From: a virus
Taxonomy: Duplodnaviria; Heunggongvirae; Uroviricota; Caudoviricetes
IMG/VR virus record: IMGVR_UViG_2718217859_000006
Length of the DNA stretch: 50,414 nucleotides
Strand: one strand, 5' to 3'
The position numbers were made by a program, and so were the translations under genes. Positions within the stretch are counted from its first letter, which is position 1. The number at the start of each line of letters is the position of its first letter. The notes beneath the pieces were generated by a model that worked only from the letters and a program-made list of their open reading frames with translations, was not told the DNA's origin and searched no databases. Below are positions 8,636-41,900 of this stretch, piece after piece.

Positions 8636-10380
8636 AATGTCCCCAGACAATTCTCTGGGGGATTTTTCATGATCAAAGAGACTGTTACGATGAGTCATAA
8701 GGAACTCCACCGACTTCAGATTATTCAGGAGTCAATTAATCGACATATTACTCAGGAACAAGCTGCGGCACGCATTGGCATTTCTATTCGGCAGGTTAAA
8801 CGTCTGGTGCAACGGTATAGAAATGAAGGGCCTTCTGGTCTGGTTTCCCACCGACGTGGAAAGCGTCCTAATAATTCCTTTTCTACTGAATTCAGAGCAA
8901 CAGTAATTTCACTCCTCAAAGGCCGTTACGCTGATTTTGGACCTACGTTTGCGTGCGAAAAATTGCGCGAGATACACGGTTTATCTTTATCCGTTGAAAC
9001 TCTCAGAAAGTGGATGATAGAAGAGGGGTTATGGCGTGAACGCCGTCGTAAAATTGCCCGTATATATCAACGCCGCATGCGACGACCATCTTACGGTGAA
9101 CTGATCCAGATTGATGGCTCACCTCATGACTGGTTTGAAAATCGAGGCCCCAGATGTACACTGATCGTTTTCATTGATGATGCCACCAGTGCGTTGATGG
9201 CGTTGCGTTTTGTGCCTGCTGAAACAACCCGGGCTTACATGGAAACCCTCCGGGGTTACCTTAATGATCATGGCGTACCGCTCGCTCTCTACTCTGATAG
9301 ACACAGTATATTCAGGGTAAATAACCCAGAGCGGGAAGGTGAGCTGACCCAGTTCACTCGTGCGATAAAGACACTGGGCATCGAGCCAATCCATGCCAAC
9401 AGCCCGCAGGCAAAAGGGCGGGTAGAGCGCGCCAATCAGACACTACAGGACAGGCTGGTCAAAGAAATGCGGCTTCAGAATATCAGTGATATTGAAACAG
9501 CAAATGCATGGTTGCCGACCTTTATTGAAGCCTATAACAACCGGTTCGCTACGTCGCCTCGTACTACTGATAATGCTCATCTTGATGTGCACCATTCTGA
9601 AGAGGAACTGGGTTATATCTTCAGCCTACAGGCGAAGCGCGTTCTGTCTAAAAATCTCACTTTCCAGTACAAAAGCAGTGCGTTTCAGGTACGCAGTGAG
9701 GGCCGGGGATATCGACTTAGGCATTCGGTTGTTACTGTATGTGAGAACTTTGACGGTGAAATTAACGTTCTGTATGACGGGAAAGCGCTGGGCTGGGAAA
9801 AGTATGTTGATGGCCCGGAGCCTATACCACTGGATGATGAAAAGAGTGTCCATGAACGAGTGGATAATGCCCGTATTGATTTACGCTCAAAATACTATGT
9901 TAAATCTAAAGCTGACCATCCCTGGCTTACGCGCCGAACGCAAAGTCATCAGCAAGTTAAGCCCCCGAAGTTACCTAAAAAGAAGCCTGATCCCGATAAA
10001 ATAGATTGAAACCAAGATCGATTCGGTTGAGTGCATATCCATTCATAGGGTAGATTCTTAAGTCGCGTTTCTGGTGTTCATTTTCGGGTGGTTTGTTACT
10101 TGTTTTACCGGGGATATGCCAGAAACGCGCTGAGTCAGTCTGGGCGGTGCGCGTAATGAGGCGTTATGGTAAATAGCCTATGCTAATGTCCGCTAAGAGC
10201 AAGAAGCGGAAGTTGGCAGTTTTGTGGACTGTCCCCACAAAAGTGACTACAGAAATAGTTGCAATTCATAATTGATCATGGGTTGTCAGTTAAACTCGTG
10301 GCGATTTAAATAGACTAATTGGGAGTGCGTCCATTACTTATATCTTGTAATGTTAACTATCAGAAATGATACAAAGATAA
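8600..10380 (+). mobile_element. Insertion sequence with a single rve-domain DDE transposase (IS481-like or ISNCY-like); ends not resolved
   Basis: Single 446-aa transposase ORF flanked by non-coding DNA that interrupts the nin-like region; no clean terminal inverted repeats could be identified by eye. Confidence 0.5.
8669..10009 (+). CDS. DDE transposase (N-terminal HTH plus rve integrase-core domain)
   Basis: 446 aa; HTH segment IGISIRQVKRLVQRY; catalytic core with DGSPHDWF, LYSDRHSIF and HANSPQAKGRVERANQTLQDRL (D,D,E-type motifs). Confidence 0.85.
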   Translation: MIKETVTMSHKELHRLQIIQESINRHITQEQAAARIGISIRQVKRLVQRYRNEGPSGLVSHRRGKRPNNSFSTEFRATVISLLKGRYADFGPTFACEKLREIHGLSLSVETLRKWMIEEGLWRERRRKIARIYQRRMRRPSYGELIQIDGSPHDWFENRGPRCTLIVFIDDATSALMALRFVPAETTRAYMETLRGYLNDHGVPLALYSDRHSIFRVNNPEREGELTQFTRAIKTLGIEPIHANSPQAKGRVERANQTLQDRLVKEMRLQNISDIETANAWLPTFIEAYNNRFATSPRTTDNAHLDVHHSEEELGYIFSLQAKRVLSKNLTFQYKSSAFQVRSEGRGYRLRHSVVTVCENFDGEINVLYDGKALGWEKYVDGPEPIPLDDEKSVHERVDNARIDLRSKYYVKSKADHPWLTRRTQSHQQVKPPKLPKKKPDPDKID

Positions 10381-20665: not shown

Positions 20666-21037
20666 GCACCATAACTGCTAATCATTCAAACTATTTCACC
20701 TGTGACAGAGTCAATATCGCATTCTGTCACTGTCAGGCTAATACAGAGCTGCAATTCAACTACTGCAATGTCCTCGTAATTAGGTGAATTTACAATATCG
20801 TCCTGTTCGGATGCCGGTTGCATTGCTGAAGATGAGGCATTTATGGTTCGCATATTTTCCCCTCATGCTCGTCAGTCCTGTGCGTAGGAAGAAACAGGAC
20901 ACTCACACTAATTTGTGTGGGCATGCTGTGATGTCCTTCTGAATTATTCCTATGCCATTATGTAAAGCGCTGTATCAGATGCTCATCACGGCTGTCAGGC
21001 TGTCAGGCTGTCGGGTCCTCCCGGTGGGGGCCCCTGC

Positions 21038-21058
21038 CACGGGGCGGGAGCGTCGCGG
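21038..21058 (+). promoter_or_regulatory. cosN-like cohesive-end site
   Basis: ACGGGGCGGGAGCGTCGCGGA is near-identical in pattern to lambda cosN (ACGGGGCGGCGACCTCGCGGG, as recalled) and lies about 200 bp upstream of the small terminase gene once the IS is subtracted. Confidence 0.6.
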
Positions 21059-21170
21059 AAAAAGGCTAGTTTTTGCATTTCCATGGCGGCGGCAGCATGT
21101 TTGGTAATTTATTGATAATTAAAAGTTATTTCTCTTTTTGCCTGTACAATATTTTTTTCTCCCTGTCATT

Positions 21171-21178
21171 AGACCAGT
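21171..21178. repeat. Target-site duplication GACCAGTT (left copy)
   Basis: Exact 8-bp direct repeat abutting the IS left end. Confidence 0.8.
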
Positions 21179-21232
21179 TGTAACCGGCTCATTTAAACCG
21201 TCTGGTCTGTTTCCTCCGGCTCTACAAAAATA

Positions 21233-21910
21233 ATGTCCATCATTTTTAATGGACACTATCGTATGAAACACCGGACCTGGATCACTGAAGCTTTACGTCT
21301 TCACTTTGAAGAACATTTACCCCGGGTTGTGGCCGGGCGTCGCCTGGGTGTACCAAAATCAACAGTTTGTAGTATGTTCGTGCGCTTTCGGAGAGCTGGC
21401 CTTTCGTGGCCTTTGCCCGCAGGCATGTCGGAGCAGGAACTTGATGCCTGCCTTTACGGACAATTTTCCACGGTACCAGTCGTACGTCCTGAAAGCACCG
21501 TTATATCCGAAGCCCCCGTGGTAAAAAAACGTCCCCGGCGGCCCAACTTCCCTTATGAGTTTAAAATCGCCTTAGTGGAGCAGTCACTGCAGCCCGGAGC
21601 CTGTGTGGCGCAGATCGCCCGGGAAAACGGAATCAACGATAACCTGCTCTTCAACTGGCGCCATCAATACCGGAAAGGTGGCCTGCTGCCTTCCGGAAAA
21701 AATATGCCGGCACTGCTTCCCGTGACGTTAACGCCGGAGCCGGATAATAAAATCCCGGCCCCCGCACAGGAACCAGAGCAGATAAATACACCGTCCGACA
21801 GTCTGTGTTGTGAGCTGGTTCTGCCGGCCGGAACTCTCAGGCTTAAAGGTAAACTGACGCCGGCGTTATTACAGACACTTATCCGCGAAATAAAAGGGAG
21901 CAGCCACTGA
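21233..21910 (+). CDS. IS66-family accessory protein TnpA (orf1)
   Basis: 225-aa ORF, first of three co-oriented IS ORFs. Confidence 0.75.
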   Translation: MSIIFNGHYRMKHRTWITEALRLHFEEHLPRVVAGRRLGVPKSTVCSMFVRFRRAGLSWPLPAGMSEQELDACLYGQFSTVPVVRPESTVISEAPVVKKRPRRPNFPYEFKIALVEQSLQPGACVAQIARENGINDNLLFNWRHQYRKGGLLPSGKNMPALLPVTLTPEPDNKIPAPAQEPEQINTPSDSLCCELVLPAGTLRLKGKLTPALLQTLIREIKGSSH

Positions 21911-22257
21911 TGATATCTCTCCCTGCAGGTTCGCGTATCTGGCTGGTTGCAGGTATCACCGATATGCGAAATGGCTTTAACGGCCTGGCATCAAAAGTTC
22001 AGAACGTCCTGAAGGATGACCCGTTCTCCGGACACCTGTTCATCTTCCGCGGACGCCGGGGTGACCAGATAAAAGTGTTGTGGGCTGACAGTGACGGACT
22101 GTGCCTCTTCACCAAACGCCTGGAGCGGGGCCGCTTCGTCTGGCCAGTCACCCGTGACGGCAAGGTGCACCTTACTCCGGCTCAGTTATCCATGCTTCTT
22201 GAAGGTATCAACTGGAAGCACCCGAAACGAACGGAACGCGCTGGAATCCGCATATAA
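21910..22257 (+). CDS. IS66-family TnpB (orf2)
   Basis: 115 aa MISLPAGSRIWLVAGITDMRNGFNGLA...; start overlaps orf1 stop (ATGA). Confidence 0.85.
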   Translation: MISLPAGSRIWLVAGITDMRNGFNGLASKVQNVLKDDPFSGHLFIFRGRRGDQIKVLWADSDGLCLFTKRLERGRFVWPVTRDGKVHLTPAQLSMLLEGINWKHPKRTERAGIRI

Positions 22258-22276
22258 CCCGTTGTAAAGTGAGGAT

Positions 22277-23848
22277 ATGGACACCTCACTTGCTCATGAG
22301 AACGCCCGCCTGCGGGCACTGTTGCAGACGCAACAGGACACCATCCGCCAGATGGCTGAATACAACCGCCTGCTCTCACAGCGGGTGGCGGCTTATGCTT
22401 CCGAAATCAACCGGCTGAAGGCGCTGGTTGCGAAACTGCAACGTATGCAGTTCGGTAAAAGCTCAGAAAAACTTCGTGCAAAAACCGAACGGCAGATACA
22501 GGAAGCACAGGAGCGAATCAGCGCACTTCAGGAAGAAATGGCGGAAACGCTGGGTGAGCAATATGACCCGGTACTGCCATCCGCCCTGCGCCAGTCTTCA
22601 GCCCGTAAACCGTTACCGGCCTCACTTCCCCGTGAAACCCGGGTTATCCGGCCGGAAGAGGAATGCTGTCCTGCCTGTGGTGGTGAACTCAGTTCTCTGG
22701 GATGTGATGTGTCAGAGCAACTGGAGCTTATCAGCAGCGCCTTTAAGGTTATCGAAACACAACGTCCGAAACAGGCCTGTTGCCGGTGCGACCATATCGT
22801 GCAGGCACCAGTACCTTCAAAACCCATTGCACGCAGTTATGCCGGAGCGGGGCTTCTGGCCCATGTTGTCACCGGGAAATATGCAGACCATCTGCCGTTA
22901 TACCGCCAGTCAGAAATATACCGTCGTCAGGGAGTGGAGCTGAGCCGTGCCACACTGGGGCGCTGGACAGGTGCTGTTGCTGAACTGCTGGAGCCGCTGT
23001 ATGACGTCCTGCGCCAGTATGTGCTGATGCCCGGTAAAGTCCATGCTGATGATATCCCCGTCCCGGTCCAGGAGCCGGGCAGCGGTAAAACCCGGACAGC
23101 CCGGCTGTGGGTCTACGTCCGTGATGACCGTAACGCCGGTTCACAGATGCCCCCGGCGGTCTGGTTCGCGTACAGTCCGGACCGGAAAGGTATCCATCCA
23201 CAAAATCACCTGGCCGGTTACAGCGGTGTGCTTCAGGCCGATGCTTACGGTGGTTACCGGGCGTTATACGAATCCGGCAGAATAACGGAAGCCGCGTGTA
23301 TGGCTCATGCCCGGAGAAAAATCCACGATGTGCATGCAAGAGCGCCCACCTACATCACCACGGAAGCCCTGCAGCGTATCGGTGAACTGTATGCCATCGA
23401 GGCAGAGGTCCGGGGCTGTTCAGCAGAACAGCGTCTGGCGGCAAGAAAAGCCAGAGCCGCGCCACTGATGCAGTCACTGTATGACTGGATACAGCAACAG
23501 ATGAAAACACTGTCGCGTCACTCAGATACGGCAAAAGCGTTCGCATACCTGCTGAAACAGTGGGATGCACTGAACGTGTACTGCAGTAATGGCTGGGTGG
23601 AAATCGACAACAACATCGCAGAGAACGCCTTACGGGGAGTGGCCGTAGGCCGGAAAAACTGGATGTTCGCGGGTTCCGACAGCGGTGGTGAACATGCGGC
23701 GGTGTTGTACTCGCTGATCGGCACATGCCGTCTGAACAATGTGGAGCCAGAAAAGTGGCTGCGTTACGTCATTGAACATATCCAGGACTGGCCGGCAAAC
23801 CGGGTACGCGATCTGTTGCCCTGGAAAGTTGATCTGAGCTCTCAGTAA
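22277..23848 (+). CDS. IS66-family transposase TnpC (orf3)
   Basis: 523 aa; N-terminal coiled coil, CxxC...CxxC zinc ribbon (CCPACGG, CCRCDH), DDE core. Confidence 0.9.
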
Positions 23849-23878
23849 ATATCAATACGGTTCTGACGAGTCGCTTAC

Positions 23879-23886
23879 GACCAGTT
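23879..23886. repeat. Target-site duplication GACCAGTT (right copy)
   Basis: Exact 8-bp direct repeat abutting the IS right end. Confidence 0.8.
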
Positions 23887-23944
23887 TACAATTAATTGAA
23901 ATATATAAATAAACATGATTTTCACCTGCCAGATGGAGTTGCTT

Positions 23945-24472
23945 ATGTCAAATGTGAGCGGGATCGGTGATGCTTATTACTGGAGTGTTTTTAAAATCGC
24001 TGAGGCCTTTGGGCTTCACCGGGACACAGTAAAAAAACGGCTTCTCGCGGCCAACACTCCTGTGGCTGCGACTGTCAGGGGGAACCCCGTTTACGCCCTG
24101 CAGCATGTCGGGCCAGCCCTGTTTAGTGTGAAGCATGAGGCAGCAGACTCTGTTCATGATCCATCCCGTATGGAGCCGAAAGAGAGAAAGGACTGGTACC
24201 AGTCTGAAAATGAAAGGATCAAGCTGGAAAAGGAGCAGCGAAAACTCATCCCCGTTGATGAAGTAGTCATCGTCTATTCGTCCATGAGAAAGGCTGTCGT
24301 CCAGGTTCTGGAGACAATTCCGGATGTTCTTGAACGCGATTGCGCCCTGACTCCTCAGGCCGTCGGCGTTGTACAGCAGGCAATTGATGACCTGCGATAC
24401 ACTCTTCAGGAAAAATCCTACGAGGCTTGTGCTGCTGAATTAATTCCTGATGAGGAAGGAGAGAGTCTCTAG
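23945..24472 (+). CDS. Terminase small subunit (Nu1-like)
   Basis: 175 aa from Met with GGAG SD; N-terminal HTH-like segment; immediately upstream of the large terminase. Confidence 0.8.
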   Translation: MSNVSGIGDAYYWSVFKIAEAFGLHRDTVKKRLLAANTPVAATVRGNPVYALQHVGPALFSVKHEAADSVHDPSRMEPKERKDWYQSENERIKLEKEQRKLIPVDEVVIVYSSMRKAVVQVLETIPDVLERDCALTPQAVGVVQQAIDDLRYTLQEKSYEACAAELIPDEEGESL

Positions 24473-24480
24473 GAGGAATA

Positions 24481-26580
24481 ATGGGTTTTTCATCAGCCCG
24501 AAATTTGGGAAGGGACATATCGGCAGGATTTTCCCCACCACGTCGCATGCCGATTTCGGAGGCTGTTAAAAAATTCATGCGTGTTCCCAAGGGGGCTGGT
24601 AACTCGGTGCCATGGGATCCTGAACTGACACCCTACATCATTGAGCCCATGAACTGCCTGGCATCGCGTGAATACGATGCGGTGATTTTTGTTGGTCCTG
24701 CGCGAACAGGGAAGACCATTGGTCTGATCGATGGATGGATTGTCTATACCATCGTTTGCGATCCTTCGGACATGCTCGTTGTGCAGATGACCGAAGATAA
24801 GGCCCGCGAGCATTCTAAAAAGCGCCTCGACAGAACGTTCAGAAGCAGTGCGGCGGTAAAGAAAAGAATGAGTCCACGTCGTAACGACAATAATGTCCAT
24901 GATAAGACGTTCAGGGATGGCTCGTTCCTTAAAATTGGTTGGCCCTCGGTCAACATTATGTCGTCGTCGGATTACCGGTTTGTCGCCTTAACCGATTACG
25001 ACCGTTTTCCGGAGAATATCGACAGCGAGGGTGATGGTTTCTCCCTGGCCTCAAAACGTACCACCACATTTATGTCCGCCGGGATGACTCTGGTGGAGAG
25101 CTCGCCGGGACGTGACATCTGCGACAGCAAATGGCGACGTAAGTCGCCTCATGAAGCGCCACCGACGACTGGTATTCTTTCCCTTTACAATCGTGGTGAC
25201 CGCCGCCGCTGGTACTGGTCATGTCCGCACTGCGGTGAATATTTTCAGCCAGCCATGGATGCCATGACCGGCTACCGTAATGAACCGGATCCCTTTAAAG
25301 CCAGTGAGGCGGCGTATCTACTTTGCCCGCACTGCAGCGGCATTATCACTGCGGAGAAAAAGCGTGAGCTCAATAGTGCAGGAGTCTGGTTGCGTGAAGG
25401 TCAGGTCATTGATCGTAACGGCAACGTTTCCGGTGAACCGCGCCGCTCCCGTATCGCCAGTTTCTGGATGGAAGGGCCAGCTGCTGCGTATCAGACCTGG
25501 GCGCAACTGGTTTACAAATTACTGACTGCAGAACAGGAGTATGAAGCGACAGGAAGCGAAGAAACACTCAGGGCGGTTATCAACACCGACTGGGGATTGC
25601 CTTATCTTCCTCGTGCCAGCATGGAGCAACGAAAAAGTGAACTGCTTGAGCAGCGGGCAGAGCCAGTTCCTTCCCGCAGTGTGCCGGATGGCATTAATTT
25701 CCTTGTGGCGACAGTGGATGTGCAGGCGGGACGTCATCGCCGTTTTGTGGTTCAGGTAACGGGCTATGGCAGTCGTGGCGAACGCTGGATTATTGATCGT
25801 TACAACATCACGCAGTCATTGCGCAGTGACTGCGACGGGGAGAGCCAGCGAATTGATCCGGCCAGCTATCCGGAAGACTGGGATGTCCTGCTGACGGATG
25901 TTTTTCATAAAAGCTGGCCGCTGGCCTCCGATCCTTCTCAACAAATGCGACTGATGGCAATGGCGGTGGACTCCGGCGGTGAAGACGGGGTCACTGATAA
26001 TGCCTATAAATTCTGGCGTCGTTGCCGTCGTGATGGCCTTGGTAAACGTATTTACCTGTTTAAGGGTGACAGCATCCGGCGCGCAAAACTGATCAGCCGT
26101 ACATTCCCTGATAACACCGGACGAACGGGCCGCCGGGCGCAGGCCGCAGGTGATGTGCCGCTCTGGCTTCTTCAGACGGATGCCCTGAAAGACCGGGTGA
26201 ATAACGCGTTATGGCGTGACTCGCCAGGTCCAGGCTATGTGCATTTCCCTGACTGGCTGGGGAGCTGGTTTTACGACGAACTGACGTATGAAGAGCGGAG
26301 CAGTGACGGGAAATGGAGTAAGCCGGGTCGCGGTGCCAACGAAGCTTTTGACCTGATGGTGTATGCCGAGGCTCTGGTCATTCTGCATGGATACGAAAAG
26401 ATCCGCTGGCCGGATGCACCGGAGTGGGCGAGCCGGGAAACCTGGCTGGAGTGTGTCCAGGACAGTACTGAACCGTCATCCTCACCGGAACCGGTATCCA
26501 CGCCTGTTAAAAAACAAAAACGGAAGAAAACAGTAACTGACGATGTTAACCCCTGGCTGACTTCCGGAGGATGGTTATGA
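24481..26580 (+). CDS. Terminase large subunit (gpA family)
   Basis: 699 aa; Walker A-like GPARTGKT; size and position typical of the lambda-family large terminase. Confidence 0.9.
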   Translation: MGFSSARNLGRDISAGFSPPRRMPISEAVKKFMRVPKGAGNSVPWDPELTPYIIEPMNCLASREYDAVIFVGPARTGKTIGLIDGWIVYTIVCDPSDMLVVQMTEDKAREHSKKRLDRTFRSSAAVKKRMSPRRNDNNVHDKTFRDGSFLKIGWPSVNIMSSSDYRFVALTDYDRFPENIDSEGDGFSLASKRTTTFMSAGMTLVESSPGRDICDSKWRRKSPHEAPPTTGILSLYNRGDRRRWYWSCPHCGEYFQPAMDAMTGYRNEPDPFKASEAAYLLCPHCSGIITAEKKRELNSAGVWLREGQVIDRNGNVSGEPRRSRIASFWMEGPAAAYQTWAQLVYKLLTAEQEYEATGSEETLRAVINTDWGLPYLPRASMEQRKSELLEQRAEPVPSRSVPDGINFLVATVDVQAGRHRRFVVQVTGYGSRGERWIIDRYNITQSLRSDCDGESQRIDPASYPEDWDVLLTDVFHKSWPLASDPSQQMRLMAMAVDSGGEDGVTDNAYKFWRRCRRDGLGKRIYLFKGDSIRRAKLISRTFPDNTGRTGRRAQAAGDVPLWLLQTDALKDRVNNALWRDSPGPGYVHFPDWLGSWFYDELTYEERSSDGKWSKPGRGANEAFDLMVYAEALVILHGYEKIRWPDAPEWASRETWLECVQDSTEPSSSPEPVSTPVKKQKRKKTVTDDVNPWLTSGGWL

Positions 26581-28310: not shown

Positions 28311-29687
28311 ATGCAGGCTGGTCACCAGAGTGACGCGGATATTTATATTTATGACGAGATTGGTTTCTGGGGTGTTACAGCGAAGCAGTTTATCAGTGAT
28401 CTGAATGCACTGGGCGATATCACCCACATTAATCTCCATATTAATTCACCGGGTGGCGATGTCTTTGAAGGCATCGCCATTTTTAATGCGCTGAAAACAC
28501 ATGGTGCGTCCATTACCGTTTATGTCGACGGTGTGGCGGCGTCAATGGCGTCGGTCATTGCGATGGTGGGAAACCCGGTCATTATGCCGGAAAACTCCTT
28601 CATGATGATTCATAAACCATTTGGATTTACGGGCGGTGATGCGGAGGACATGCGCACCTATGCCGACCTGCTCGATAAAGTTGAGGCGGTTCTGTTACCC
28701 GCTTATGCACAGAAAACCGGGAAAACCACCGATGAAATTACTGCCATGCTGGCGGATGAGACCTGGATGTCCGGTGCCGAATGTCTGGCACAGGGATTTG
28801 CTGATCAGGTGACACCAGCCGTTAAGGCAATGGCATGTATTCAGTCAAAACGTACAGAGGAATTTAAAAAGATGCCGGAATCCATTCGAAACATGATTAC
28901 TCCGCCACGCAACAGTGCTCCACGCGTACAGGATGATGAACCTGCAGCCTCCCGGACGCCAGTGCAGGCAGCAGCACCCGTGGTGGATGAAAACAGTATC
29001 CGTGCGCAGGTACTGGCAGAGCAAAAAGTGCGTGTAAACGGTATTAATGATCTGTTTGCCATGTTTGGCGGGCGTTATCAGACGCTGCAGGCCCAGTGTC
29101 TTGCCGATCCTGAATGTTCGCTGGAGCAGGCCCGTGAAAAGCTGTTGAACGAGATGGGGCGCGAGTCCACGCCATCCAATAAAAATACCCCGGCTCATAT
29201 TTATGCCGGTAACGGTAATTTTGTGGGGGAAGGGATTCGCCAGGCGCTGATGGCGCGTGCCGGATTTGAAAAAACCGAACGTGATAATGTCTACAACGGG
29301 ATGACCCTGCGTGAATATGCCCGTATGTCACTAACTGAACGGGGTATTGGGGTTTCCGGTTATAACCCGATGCAGATGGTCGGTGCGGCGTTCACACACA
29401 GTACGTCTGACTTCGGTAATATTCTGCTGGATGTTGCGAACAAAGCCATTCTGCAGGGCTGGGAAGATGCCCCTGAAACCTATGAACAGTGGACGCGGAA
29501 AGGTCAGTTGTCTGATTTTAAAATTGCCCATCGTGTGGGTATGGGGGCTTCAGTGCTCTGCGTCAGGTGCGTGAAGGGGCGGAATATAAATACGTCACCA
29601 CCGGAGATAAACAGGCCACTATTGCACTGGCGACCTATGGCGAGCTGTTCAGTATCACCCGTCAGGCCATTATCAATGATGATCTGA
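28311..29687 (+). CDS. Head maturation protease (ClpP/S49-like) fused to the N-terminal part of the major capsid protein; frame breaks near 29543-29547
   Basis: ClpP-like core (INSPGGDVFEG...MASVIAMVGN...MIHKP) then scaffold/capsid-like sequence; reading frame degenerates after a G5 run and the product continues in another frame. Confidence 0.7.
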   Translation: MQAGHQSDADIYIYDEIGFWGVTAKQFISDLNALGDITHINLHINSPGGDVFEGIAIFNALKTHGASITVYVDGVAASMASVIAMVGNPVIMPENSFMMIHKPFGFTGGDAEDMRTYADLLDKVEAVLLPAYAQKTGKTTDEITAMLADETWMSGAECLAQGFADQVTPAVKAMACIQSKRTEEFKKMPESIRNMITPPRNSAPRVQDDEPAASRTPVQAAAPVVDENSIRAQVLAEQKVRVNGINDLFAMFGGRYQTLQAQCLADPECSLEQAREKLLNEMGRESTPSNKNTPAHIYAGNGNFVGEGIRQALMARAGFEKTERDNVYNGMTLREYARMSLTERGIGVSGYNPMQMVGAAFTHSTSDFGNILLDVANKAILQGWEDAPETYEQWTRKGQLSDFKIAHRVGMGASVLCVRCVKGRNINTSPPEINRPLLHWRPMASCSVSPVRPLSMMI

Positions 29688-38923: not shown

Positions 38924-41900
38924 ATGGGTAAAGGCAGCAGTAAGGGGCATACTCCGCGCGAAGCGAAGGACAACCTGAAGTCCACGCAGTTGCTGAGTGT
39001 GATCGATGCCATCAGCGAAGGGCCGATTGAAGGGCCGGTGGATGGATTAAAAAGCGTGCTGCTGAACAGTACGCCAGTGCTGGACAGTGAGGGGAATACC
39101 AACATCTCCGGCGTCACGGTGGTGTTCCGGGCCGGTGAGCAGGAGCAGACACCGCCAGAGGGATTTGAATCCTCCGGCTCCGAGACGGTGCTGGGTACGG
39201 AAGTGAAATACGACACGCCGATCACCCGGACCATCACGTCGGCAAACATTGACCGACTGCGTTTTACCTTCGGCGTGCAGGCACTGGTGGAAACCACCTC
39301 AAAGGGGGACAGGAATCCGTCGGAAGTCCGCCTGCTGGTTCAGATACAGCGTAATGGTGGCTGGGTGACGGAAAAAGACATCACCATTAAGGGCAAAACC
39401 ACCTCGCAGTATCTGGCCTCAGTGGTGGTGGGTAACCTGCCGCCGCGCCCGTTCAGTATACGGATGCGCAGGATGACGCCGGACAGCACCACAGACCAGC
39501 TGCAGAACAAAACGCTCTGGTCGTCATACACCGAAATCATCGATGTGAAACAGTGCTACCCGAACACGGCACTGGTCGGTGTGCAGGTGGACTCGGAGCA
39601 GTTCGGCAGCCAGCAGGTGAGCCGTAATTATCATCTGCGCGGGCGTATTCTGCAGGTGCCGTCGAATTATAACCCGCAGACGCGGCAATACAGCGGTATC
39701 TGGGACGGAACGTTTAAACCGGCATACAGCAACAACATGGCCTGGTGTCTGTGGGATATGCTGACCCATCCGCGCTACGGCATGGGGAAACGTCTTGGTG
39801 CGGCGGATGTGGATAAATGGGCGCTGTATGTCATCGGCCAGCATTGCGACCAGTCGGTGCCTGACGGCTTTGGTGGCACGGAGCCACGCATCACCTGTAA
39901 TGCTTACCTGACCACGCAGCGTAAGGCGTGGGATGTGCTCAGTGATTTCTGCTCGGCGATGCGCTGTATGCCGGTATGGAACGGGCAGACGCTGACGTTC
40001 GTGCAGGACCGGCCGTCGGATAAGGTGTGGACCTATAACCGCAGTAATGTGGTGATGCCGGATGACGGCGCGCCGTTCCGCTACAGCTTCAGCGCCCTGA
40101 AGGACCGCCATAATGCTGTTGAGGTGAACTGGATTGACCCGGACAACGGCTGGGAGACGGCGACAGAGCTTGTGGAGGACACGCAGGCCATTGCCCGTTA
40201 CGGTCGTAACGTCACGAAGATGGATGCCTTTGGCTGTACCAGCCGGGGGCAGGCACACCGCGCCGGGCTGTGGCTGATTAAAACGGAACTGCTGGAAACG
40301 CAGACCGTGGACTTCAGCGTGGGTGCCGAAGGGCTTCGCCATGTGCCGGGCGATATCATTGAAATCTGCGATGATGACTATGCGGGTATCAGCATCGGTG
40401 GTCGCGTGCTGGCGGTGAACAGCCAGACCCGGACGCTGACGCTCGACCGTGAAATCACGCTGCCATCCTCCGGCACCACGCTGATAAGCCTGGTTGACGG
40501 AAATGGCAATCCGGTCAGCGTGGAGGTTCAGTCCGTCACCGACGGCGTGAAGGTAAAAGTGAGCCGTGTTCCTGACGGCGTTGCCGGATACAGCGTGTGG
40601 GGGCTGAAGCTGCCGACGCTGCGCCAGCGACTGTTCCGCTGCGTGAGTATCCGTGAGAACGACGACGGCACGTATGCCATCACCGCCGTGCAGCATGTGC
40701 CGGAAAAAGAGGCCATCGTGGATAACGGGGCGCACTTTGACGGCGACCAGAGCGGCACGGTGAATGGTGTCACGCCGCCAGCGGTGCAGCACCTGACTGC
40801 CGAAGTCACCGCAGACAGCGGGGAATATCAGGTGCTGGCGCGATGGGACACACCGAAGGTGGTGAAGGGCGTGAGCTTCCTGCTCCGTCTGACCGTAACA
40901 GCGGGCGACGGCAGTGAGCGGCTGGTCAGCACGGCCCGGACGACGGAAACCACATACCGCTTCACACAACTGGCGTTGGGGAACTACAGGCTGACAGTCC
41001 GGGCGGTAAATGCGTGGGGACAGCAGGGCGATCCGGCATCGGTATCGTTCCGGATTGCCGCACCGGCAGCGCCGTCTCGGATTGAGCTGACACCGGGCTA
41101 TTTTCAGATAACCGCCACGCCGCATCTTGCGGTTTATGACCCGACGGTACAGTTTGAGTTCTGGTTCTCGGAAAAACGGATTGCTGGTATCAGGCAGGTT
41201 GAAACCACAGCGCGCTATCTTGGCACGGCGCTGTACTGGATAGCCGCCAGTATCAATATCAGGCCGGGCCATGATTATTATTTTTACGTTCGCAGTGTGA
41301 ACACCGTTGGCAAATCGGCATTCGTGGAGGCTGTTGGTCAGCCGAGTGATGATGCATCCGGCTATCTGGATTTTTTCAAAGGCGAGATAGGGAAAACCCA
41401 TCTGGCTCAGGAGCTGTGGACGCAGATTGATAACGGTCAGCTTGCGCCTGACCTGGCTGAAATCAGGACGTCCATTACGGATGTCAGCAATGAAATCACG
41501 CAGACCGTCAATAAGAAACTGGAAGACCAGAGTGCGGCAATTCAGCAGATACAGAAGGTTCAGGTTGATACAAATAATAACCTGAACAGCATGTGGGCTG
41601 TGAAGCTGCAGCAGATGCAGGACGGACGCCTTTATATCGCGGGTATTGGTGCCGGTATTGAGAACACCCCTGACGGCATGCAGAGTCAGGTGCTGCTGGC
41701 GGCGGACAGGATTGCGATGGTTAATCCTGCGAATGGCAACACAAAACCGATGTTTGTTGGTCAGGGCGATCAGATATTCATGAACGACGTGTTCCTGAAA
41801 CGCCTGACGGCCCCCACCATTACCAGCGGTGGAAATCCACCGGCATTTTCCCTGACACCGGACGGAAAGCTGACCGCTAAAAATGCGGATATCAGCGGTA

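Follow-up and report, generated by a model that had tools for sequence, protein, structure and literature searches.

The window, the whole stretch of 50,414 nucleotides that was analysed, corresponds to a full-length lambdoid prophage that occupies ydfJ, the Qin site, in E. coli 08-00022; this agrees with the original prediction of a Qin-like prophage. An insertion sequence (IS) interrupts the late operon of this prophage after the lysis genes and ahead of the small terminase gene, with cosN on its left and both terminase genes, which are intact, on its right. Unless stated otherwise, the features described below lie on the plus strand.

The element occupies positions 21180..23878 (2,699 bp) and is an insertion sequence of the IS66 family, ISCro1 by RefSeq naming, as identified by Pfam, RefSeq annotation and 100% identical copies in other strains. 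Its three genes are all intact and correspond to the IS66 open reading frames: tnpA (21233-21910; HTH_Tnp_1, 8.6e-15) and tnpB (21910-22257; TnpB_IS66, 4.7e-40) are situated upstream of tnpC (22277-23848; DDE_Tnp_IS66, 2.5e-103) on the same strand, and TnpC also carries the zf-IS66, LZ_Tnp_IS66 and DDE_Tnp_IS66_C domains according to Pfam. RefSeq annotation names the transposase 'IS66-like element ISCro1 family', and the protein accessions of TnpA, TnpB and TnpC are identical to those of copies in many E. coli genomes. The terminal inverted repeats (left 21180-21201, GTAACCGGCTCATTTAAACCGT; right 23857-23878, GTAAGCGACTCGTCAGAACCGT) match at 16 of 22 positions and start with GTAA. ISCro1 is known as an IS in expansion and is frequently carried by other mobile elements (PMC3072379). 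The 2.7-kb IS66-family element that had been predicted is thereby confirmed.

The element is flanked by a perfect 8-bp repeat, GACCAGTT, with the left copy at 21172..21179 (131-138 bp from the cohesive end) and the right copy at 23879..23886, and two other ISCro1 copies are likewise flanked by 8-bp duplications. This 8-mer by itself occurs four times on the plus strand of the window. When the IS and one copy of the duplication were removed, the reconstructed empty site was matched at 100% identity, without interruption, in 10 other genomes, which identifies the repeat as a true target duplication and not a chance match; at least 80% of the site was covered in 652 genomes. The sister strain OkiPb01676 carries the same prophage (99.8% identity over 40 kb, 39 SNPs) without the IS, and the insertion was seen in only one of 5,426 complete genomes, that of the source strain itself. 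One of the compared loci, which seemed to represent another case of this insertion, proved to be the source record. Since the sister has an uninterrupted site and the insertion is restricted to one genome, an intact ISCro1 has transposed recently into the AT-rich leader between cos and the small terminase gene. The comparison with IS-free sister strains suggested in the original prediction thus bears out its view of a clean and recent transposition, the 8-mer being present as a single copy in their uninterrupted sites.

Left of the element, the sequence could be assigned to an ordered cos block, numbered here in bp from the first base of the cohesive end. The cosQ heptamer GGGTCCT (21013..21019) ends 23 nt before the cohesive end and is invariant among all cos types having this cosN, in line with the high conservation of the 7-bp cosQ (PMC4669245). 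The presumed cohesive-end sequence GGGCGGGAGCGT is located at 21042..21053 (bp 1-12). The records of phages cdtI and Tritos both begin at the base equivalent to window position 21042, as expected for a cohesive end, and cosN was placed there on this ground. The same 12 nt are invariant in 32 cos variants. The predicted lambda-like cosN about 120 bp left of the IS is in accordance with these data, the 20-mer ACGGGGCGGGAGCGTCGCGG at 21039-21058 lying 121 bp left of the element. It is followed by an I2-like spacer with A5 and T5 tracts (21054..21086, bp 13-45), conserved across cos types that differ in their downstream sequence and small terminase; in lambda, I2 (bp 18-50) is essential (PMC4856287). 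On the minus strand, the sequence TATCAATAAATTA (21105..21117, bp 64-76) fully matches the IHF consensus WATCAANNNNTTR and is one of only two perfect matches in the 50-kb window. At this position the TTGA core is kept in 11 of 11 cos-type clusters and TTGAT in 10 of them, and the site is likely the equivalent of I1. The insertion point lies 138 bp right of the cohesive-end cut. As a result of the target duplication, bp 1-138 are still joined to cosN, so that cosQ, cosN, the I2-like spacer and the IHF consensus remain in one contiguous block.

The three-fold repeat of lambda-type cos sites, composed of R3, R2 (inverted) and R1, could not be recognised in this cos type. After comparison of all 12-mer pairs in both orientations over bp 40-200, the best pair matched at 10 of 12 positions against a shuffle mean of 9.8. 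A search for a remote site in the style of N15, in which 12-mers of the R3 zone were compared with bp 77-450, showed that GCAGCATGT recurs at bp 352, but such a recurrence was also obtained in 41 of 200 shuffles. The same repeat scan recovers the repeats of lambda and Gifsy-2, while those of Fels-1 reach only 10 of 12 positions, within the shuffle range.

Given this lack of recognisable repeats, cosB could be placed only by position in the relatives. In Gifsy-2 the repeats are located at bp 53-64 (R3), 96-107 (R2) and 123-134 (R1), with R2 and R1 forming a 12/12 inverted repeat, and in Fels-1 at approximately bp 44-57, 93-104 and 117-128, respectively. Two sister cos types that share the present cosN carry repeats at bp 95-105 and 120-130 (v8) and at bp 48-58 and 122-132 (v2). 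The R1-like repeat therefore ends at bp 128-134 in all four. By position only, the segment GGCGGCGGCAGCATGTTTGG (21085..21104, bp 44-63) would correspond to R3, and the segment at 21134..21175 (bp 93-134), which flanks a T7 tract, to R2 and R1 of the relatives. The terminase-binding core of cosB is accordingly inferred to lie left of the IS, which would put the element at or just past the distal edge of cosB and not in its middle. The alignment to lambdoid cos regions proposed in the original prediction gives a divided answer: the R-like repeats of these relatives fall left of the IS, and in lambda, with R3 at bp 50-65, R2 at 109-124 and R1 at 151-166, the equivalent point falls between R2 and R1, leaving R1 to its right. 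No experimental mapping of the end of cosB in phages with DUF1441 small terminases was found in the literature.

The last 58 bp of the leader, together with the terminase genes, have been moved 2.7 kb from the cosN block. This displaced AT-rich segment (23887..23944, bp 139-196) contains a near-consensus second IHF site, CAATTAATTGAAA, at bp 141-153. Among the 32 cos variants a conserved unit extends from cosQ to approximately bp 193; variable sites make up 11% of bp 139-184 versus 12-33% of the segments left of the IS, and bp 139-184 are as conserved as bp 13-138. In PICI-like islands (phage-inducible chromosomal islands) that lack a terminase gene, about 90% identity is retained as far as approximately bp 196, which suggests that the displaced leader may belong to the functional cos. 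Both halves of these satellite-island cos sites are equally diverged (about 9-10%). As a guide to the right end of cosB, conservation was consequently undecisive, the two halves being equally conserved in phages and equally diverged in islands.

The small terminase gene is annotated by RefSeq at 23945..24472, with alternative starts at 23933, the one annotated in cdtI, and at 23915. Depending on the start at 23933 or 23945, it begins 54-66 bp past the IS, and without the element the distance from cosN to the gene would be 184-196 bp, compared to 190 bp in lambda. Both the gene position (about 65 bp right of the IS) and the lambda-like spacing of about 200 bp had been correctly predicted. The product has the same amino-acid sequence (100% identity) as its counterparts in phages cdtI, Tritos and HannyBb and matches the DUF1441 (1.9e-44, Pfam) and phrog_141 (7.9e-65) profiles; within Pfam it is found in DUF1441 only and not in Phage_Nu1. 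BLASTP against Nu1 gave an E-value of 4.6, reciprocal PHROG profile matches between the small terminase and Nu1 gave 1e-9 (phrog_57) and 5.6e-8 (phrog_141), and an hhalign alignment covering the N-terminal helix-turn-helix gave an E-value of 0.0024, with a reported probability of 12%. A sequence search of solved structures returned no relevant match, lambda Nu1 not being among the matches. By these comparisons the protein is only a remote relative of Nu1 outside the Phage_Nu1 family, with a Nu1-like role. Of the predicted 'Nu1-like' gene, the small-terminase role is retained and the family is replaced by DUF1441, which the original prediction had not mentioned; nor had it considered genome growth or other possible lesions of the prophage. 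The adjacent gene (24481..26580) encodes a large terminase subunit of the gpA family (GpA_ATPase, 4.2e-80; GpA_nuclease, 4.4e-86; Pfam).

The reading we favour, with a probability of roughly 55%, is a recent ISCro1 insertion at or just past the distal edge of cosB, an ordinary step of IS-driven prophage erosion with an uncertain effect on packaging. The IS thus probably occupies the outer margin of the packaging site and not its core. ISCro1 transposed into the leader between cos and the small terminase gene with formation of the 8-bp duplication. In the inferred outcome, cos could still be recognised and cleaved by the terminase, perhaps at lower efficiency, and late gene expression would depend on transcripts that read through the IS, whose orientation is the same. 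With the element, the DNA to be packaged would lengthen from about 46.4 kb to 49.1 kb. The latter length corresponds to about 104-106% of the genome size in related phages and may approach the packaging limit. The original prediction went further, holding that the IS destroys cosB and that packaging can no longer be initiated. This was not established, as bp 1-138 are intact and the R repeats of the relatives end at or before bp 134. It would hold if cosB reached the terminase gene and were split by the IS, the terminase misassembling beside cosN and the prophage being unable to start its own packaging, which we regard as rather unlikely. The conservation from cosQ to approximately bp 193, with bp 139-184 matching the left part, the retention of the region to approximately bp 196 in satellite islands without a terminase gene, the near-consensus IHF site at bp 141-153, the location of lambda R1 right of the equivalent point and the lack of identifiable R sites left of the IS are consistent with a split cosB. 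However, the critical site in lambda and N15 is R3, R1 having an accessory and, in lambda, non-essential role (PMC9026076, PMC4669245), the R-like repeats of all four related cos types lie within the 138 bp that the duplication has kept intact, and the equal divergence of both satellite cos halves fits neutral drift as well as constraint. The position of lambda R1, the conservation of bp 139-196 and the missing R repeats also count against the placement of the element at the edge of cosB, and the lowered transcription downstream of ISCro1 at another locus (PMC8764528) and the enlarged genome count against the favoured reading as a whole.

Two further explanations do not rest on an effect on cos. 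A main effect on expression appears improbable: the IS would separate the terminase and head-tail genes from the late promoter, and either polarity would lower their expression or an outward hybrid promoter at the right IS end would give low constitutive terminase expression. The element does lie within the late operon, and a promoter-like site with a -10 box TACAAT spans the right IS end and its flank (23863-23892), but its 9/12 match is no commoner in the sequence than in shuffles. No forward-strand terminator was predicted within the IS, and Q-modified late transcription of lambdoid phages, through Q antitermination, resists terminators. At the afa locus, on the other hand, ISCro1 reduced downstream transcription (PMC8764528). 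The second explanation, to which we give somewhat less than even odds, is that the prophage was already cryptic and non-propagating and the IS is another neutral lesion without functional consequence. Signs of prior decay include a truncated ISEsa1 transposase remnant in the early region adjoining the O-like replication gene, which is also present in the sister strain, and pseudogenes peculiar to the sister, in which DUF977 is frameshifted and minor tail protein L is interrupted by an internal stop. The source itself has 1-nt deletions that frameshift a protease-capsid fusion gene and the tape-measure gene, and many strains carry the prophage at the Qin site by vertical inheritance. Yet both source frameshifts are losses of a single G, in G runs at window positions 29542 and 36156, and could reflect sequencing errors, no defect is annotated in the integrase, excisionase, repressor, Q, lysis, terminase, portal and tail genes, and free phages exist with identical small terminases and 96-98% identical cos.

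Four independent ISCro1 insertions were found near cos or a small terminase gene. A preference of ISCro1 or the IS66 family for the bent AT-rich leader between cos and the small terminase gene was considered and rejected, since no enrichment was seen: a rough estimate based on about 14,000 ISCro1 places in the genome set and a 600-bp region gives about 0.8 expected insertions versus two seen in complete genomes. The three target duplications that were compared showed no consensus.

Beyond the source strain, the significance of a recent IS insertion in a prophage, an ordinary decay step, is small. The strain nevertheless offers a test case, as the source and its IS-free sisters otherwise differ by few changes, and their comparison could locate the end of cosB for a DUF1441 small terminase. 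On a further reading, the strain would be a natural deletion experiment on cos: if the IS-carrying prophage, or just the cos block left of the element, were still cut and packaged, the first 138 bp would form a complete packaging-initiation signal in a cos type without recognisable R repeats. We consider this very unlikely; if true, the DUF1441 small terminase would recognise DNA unlike those of lambda, Gifsy-2 and Fels-1.

In comparison to ISCro1 of Citrobacter rodentium and E. coli, the element showed no difference in the features compared, including the tnpA-tnpB-tnpC layout, the DDE_Tnp_IS66 domain, the 8-bp duplication and the inverted repeats starting with GTAA, and only its insertion site is particular to the strain. 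The cos region resembles that of lambda in its A/T-tract spacer, the IHF consensus after the R3 position and the distance of about 190 bp to the small terminase gene. The cosQ heptamer is the same, ending 24 nt before the cohesive end in lambda and 23 nt here, and the presumed cohesive end is identical to that of lambda (GGGCGGCGACCT) at 8 of 12 positions, differing at 7, 8, 9 and 11. Both large subunits belong to the gpA family, whereas the small subunit is Phage_Nu1 in lambda and DUF1441 here, and the three-fold R repeat of lambda is undetectable in this cos type. Gifsy-2 and Fels-1 share the terminase families, including the DUF1441 small subunit, and the overall cos layout. Their small terminases are 35-40% identical to that of this prophage, with a proposed recognition helix HRQTxxxR instead of HRDTVKKR, and R3, R2 and R1 repeats can be recognised in both at bp 44-134, in contrast to the present cos type.

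An IS66-family insertion in a prophage nu1 gene has already been published, and the present insertion is of the same kind. In prophage Sp4 of E. coli O157 Sakai, ISEc8 is inserted in nu1, a lesion among the many described for a pool of defective prophages, and Sp4 DNA was nonetheless packaged, most probably through the terminase of Sp14, whose cos is nearly identical (PMC2669165). Both prophages are lambdoid and carry an IS66-family element in the cos and small-terminase region, but Sp4 has its small terminase gene disrupted by the element, while the present prophage keeps the two terminase genes intact, with the IS situated in the leader, 138 bp from the cut.

A 3.3-kb query from the window gave a 100% match to the genome of E. 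coli 08-00022 (NZ_CP013662.1, reverse strand), in which the flanking 40 kb are annotated in RefSeq as a full-length lambdoid prophage. The integration site is ydfJ (the Qin site), and the prophage extends over approximately 1-49130 of the window; dicB, relBE, hokD, cspB/F/I, essD and rrrQ precede its terminase, portal, capsid and tail genes. Its size is about 49.1 kb with the insertion sequence ISCro1 and about 46.4 kb before insertion, compared with 46.4 kb for phage Tritos and 47.0 kb for phage cdtI. The protease-capsid fusion gene and the tape-measure gene are marked as frameshifted by RefSeq in the source strain. Since both frameshifts are single-G losses within G runs (29542 and 36156) relative to the sister strain OkiPb01676, they may be sequencing errors and not real lesions. 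A truncated ISEsa1 (IS1202-like) transposase remnant is located in the early region (8669-9739), adjoining an O-like replication gene and a Ren-like gene; its presence in the sister strain as well marks it as an older lesion. Next to the O-like gene, no gene for a helicase loader was seen.

ISCro1 occupies 21180-23878 (2,699 bp) and has 22-nt terminal inverted repeats, in which 16 positions match. It is flanked on either side (21172-21179 and 23879-23886) by a copy of the perfect 8-bp direct repeat GACCAGTT. Its forward ORFs encode TnpA (HTH_Tnp_1), TnpB (TnpB_IS66) and a TnpC-type transposase (DDE_Tnp_IS66, E 2.5e-103), in agreement with the name given in RefSeq and with the IS66-family assignment of the original prediction. 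ISCro1 is a known member of this family that has multiplied in Citrobacter rodentium and is frequent in E. coli (PMC3072379, PMC8764528). It lies within the late operon in the orientation of the late genes, and no forward terminator was predicted within it. A promoter-like site directed toward the terminase genes (23863-23892; -35 CTGACG in the right IS end and flanking TACAAT) scored 9/12, which is not above chance.

The clean and recent transposition, also predicted, could be verified with a 600-bp empty-site sequence, from which ISCro1 and one repeat copy had been removed in silico. Ten bovine isolates contain this sequence uninterrupted and at 100% identity, and 652 genomes have matches that cover 80% or more of its length. 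The prophage is also present, at the same integration site, in one of these isolates, OkiPb01676, where it shares many protein accessions with that of the source. A comparison of the two prophages over 40 kb showed 39 substitutions, two short early-region indels and two 1-nt indels in addition to the IS. ISCro1 was present at this site in the source genome only (one of 5,426 complete genomes). Based on the empty site in relatives, the near-identical sister prophage and this single occurrence, the insertion is real, clean and recent. Of the 39 substitutions relative to the sister prophage, 35 fall in the right-hand 20 kb, and 28 of these are clustered in about 700 bp (39842-40528) of the tail tip gene gpJ, which suggests a recombination patch in a host-range determinant.

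The records of phages cdtI (AB285204) and Tritos (OV696610) begin at the base corresponding to window position 21042 and show 97.7-98.2% identity to the window from there onward. For this reason the putative cohesive end was placed at GGGCGGGAGCGT (bp 1-12, where bp 1 is position 21042), whereas that of lambda is GGGCGGCGACCT. The expected lambda-like cosN left of the IS is accompanied by a cosQ heptamer, GGGTCCT (21013-21019), one base nearer the cut than in lambda, by an I2-like A/T-tract spacer (bp 13-45), kept across cos types with different downstream sequence and small terminase, and by a perfect IHF consensus (bp 64-76). Only two such perfect matches exist in the window, and the TTGA core of this one is found at the same position in each of the 11 sequence clusters of cos types. 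Tandem GGCTGTCA copies directly precede cosQ (20989-21012), and CTGTCA occurs again at bp 123-128. The start of the small terminase gene lies at bp 185 or 197, compared with 191 in lambda, so that the predicted lambda-like spacing holds. The gene was called Nu1-like in the original prediction, but its protein, 100% identical in cdtI and Tritos, belongs to Pfam DUF1441 and not to Pfam Nu1. BLASTP against Nu1 gave no significant match, while reciprocal PHROG profile matches and an hhalign E of 0.0024 over the N-terminal helix-turn-helix were obtained. It is thus only remotely related to Nu1, and phages with DUF1441 small terminases are therefore better guides to cosB.

The duplicated target corresponds to bp 131-138; therefore bp 1-138 are still joined to cosN. 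In lambda, the terminase-binding repeats of cosB are R3 (bp 50-65), R2 (109-124) and R1 (151-166), of which R3 is the critical site and R1 has a non-essential accessory role (PMC9026076, PMC4669245); I2 is essential (PMC4856287). In Gifsy-2 they are located at bp 53-64, 96-107 and 123-134, R2 and R1 forming a 12/12 inverted pair, and in Fels-1, as read from the sequence, at about 44-57, 93-104 and 117-128. Two sister types share the cosN of the window: v8, with R2 at bp 95-105, R1 at 120-130 and R3 not assigned, and v2, with R3 at 48-58, a weak R2 match (8/11, 89-99) and R1 at 122-132. Because the last repeat ends before bp 135 in all four, ISCro1 would, by analogy of position, be located at the distal end of cosB or slightly beyond it, and the core would be left intact. 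A pair scan of the window cos type revealed no R repeats above shuffled controls, although it recovers those of lambda and Gifsy-2; the Fels-1 repeats reached only 10/12, inside the shuffle range. In a sister cos type from IMG/VR, v31, an 11-bp tandem duplication (TATAACGC...TATAACGC) aligns with the IS target (about bp 131-141), so length changes are tolerated there in a natural variant.

The original prediction placed the IS within cosB and expected packaging initiation to be lost. A comparison of 32 distinct variants of this cos type indeed showed a conserved block reaching from cosQ to about bp 193, a mosaic upstream flank, and no more variable sites in bp 139-184 than in bp 13-138. Furthermore, PICI-like (phage-inducible chromosomal island) islands in four loci (L008:1933-8470, L064, L097 and L123), encoding an integrase, Bro-N, DUF4222, AAA_25 and SSB, all terminate in a cos of this type, which is about 90% identical between cosQ and approximately bp 196 and is not followed by a terminase gene. 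Its retention in the islands hints that the displaced 58 bp may be part of the functional cos, but the equal divergence of the two halves of the island cos is as compatible with neutral drift as with constraint. When the repeat positions of the relatives are weighed against these limits, an intact cosB core with an uncertain effect of ISCro1 on packaging is favored, at a probability of roughly 55%; complete loss of packaging initiation is less likely. The observation itself is confirmed and its interpretation partly supported. In L008, the ORF directly preceding the island encodes a large terminase that ends at 331 aa and comprises the ATPase domain only; the surrounding prophage is of a different cos type, and the island thus seems to have been inserted into its large-terminase gene.

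Independent ISCro1 insertions near cos were found in three further cases, all in other strains: inside the DUF1441 small terminase gene of strain 98232 (L003:3717-6415, duplication TTCTGGAG), in opposite orientation near bp 178 of the leader that is interrupted here (L075:1-1938) and about 600 bp upstream of cos in isolate AF6 (L129:2502-5200, duplication GGATAACT). As the genome set contains thousands of ISCro1 copies, they represent no clear enrichment. The insertion described here is of some use as a natural test for locating the end of cosB in the DUF1441 terminase family, but its general interest is low, and it is a further instance of an already known kind of IS insertion. In the O157 Sakai prophage Sp4, the IS66-family element ISEc8 interrupts nu1, and Sp4 DNA is still packaged, most likely through the terminase of another resident prophage, whose cos is nearly identical (PMC2669165).
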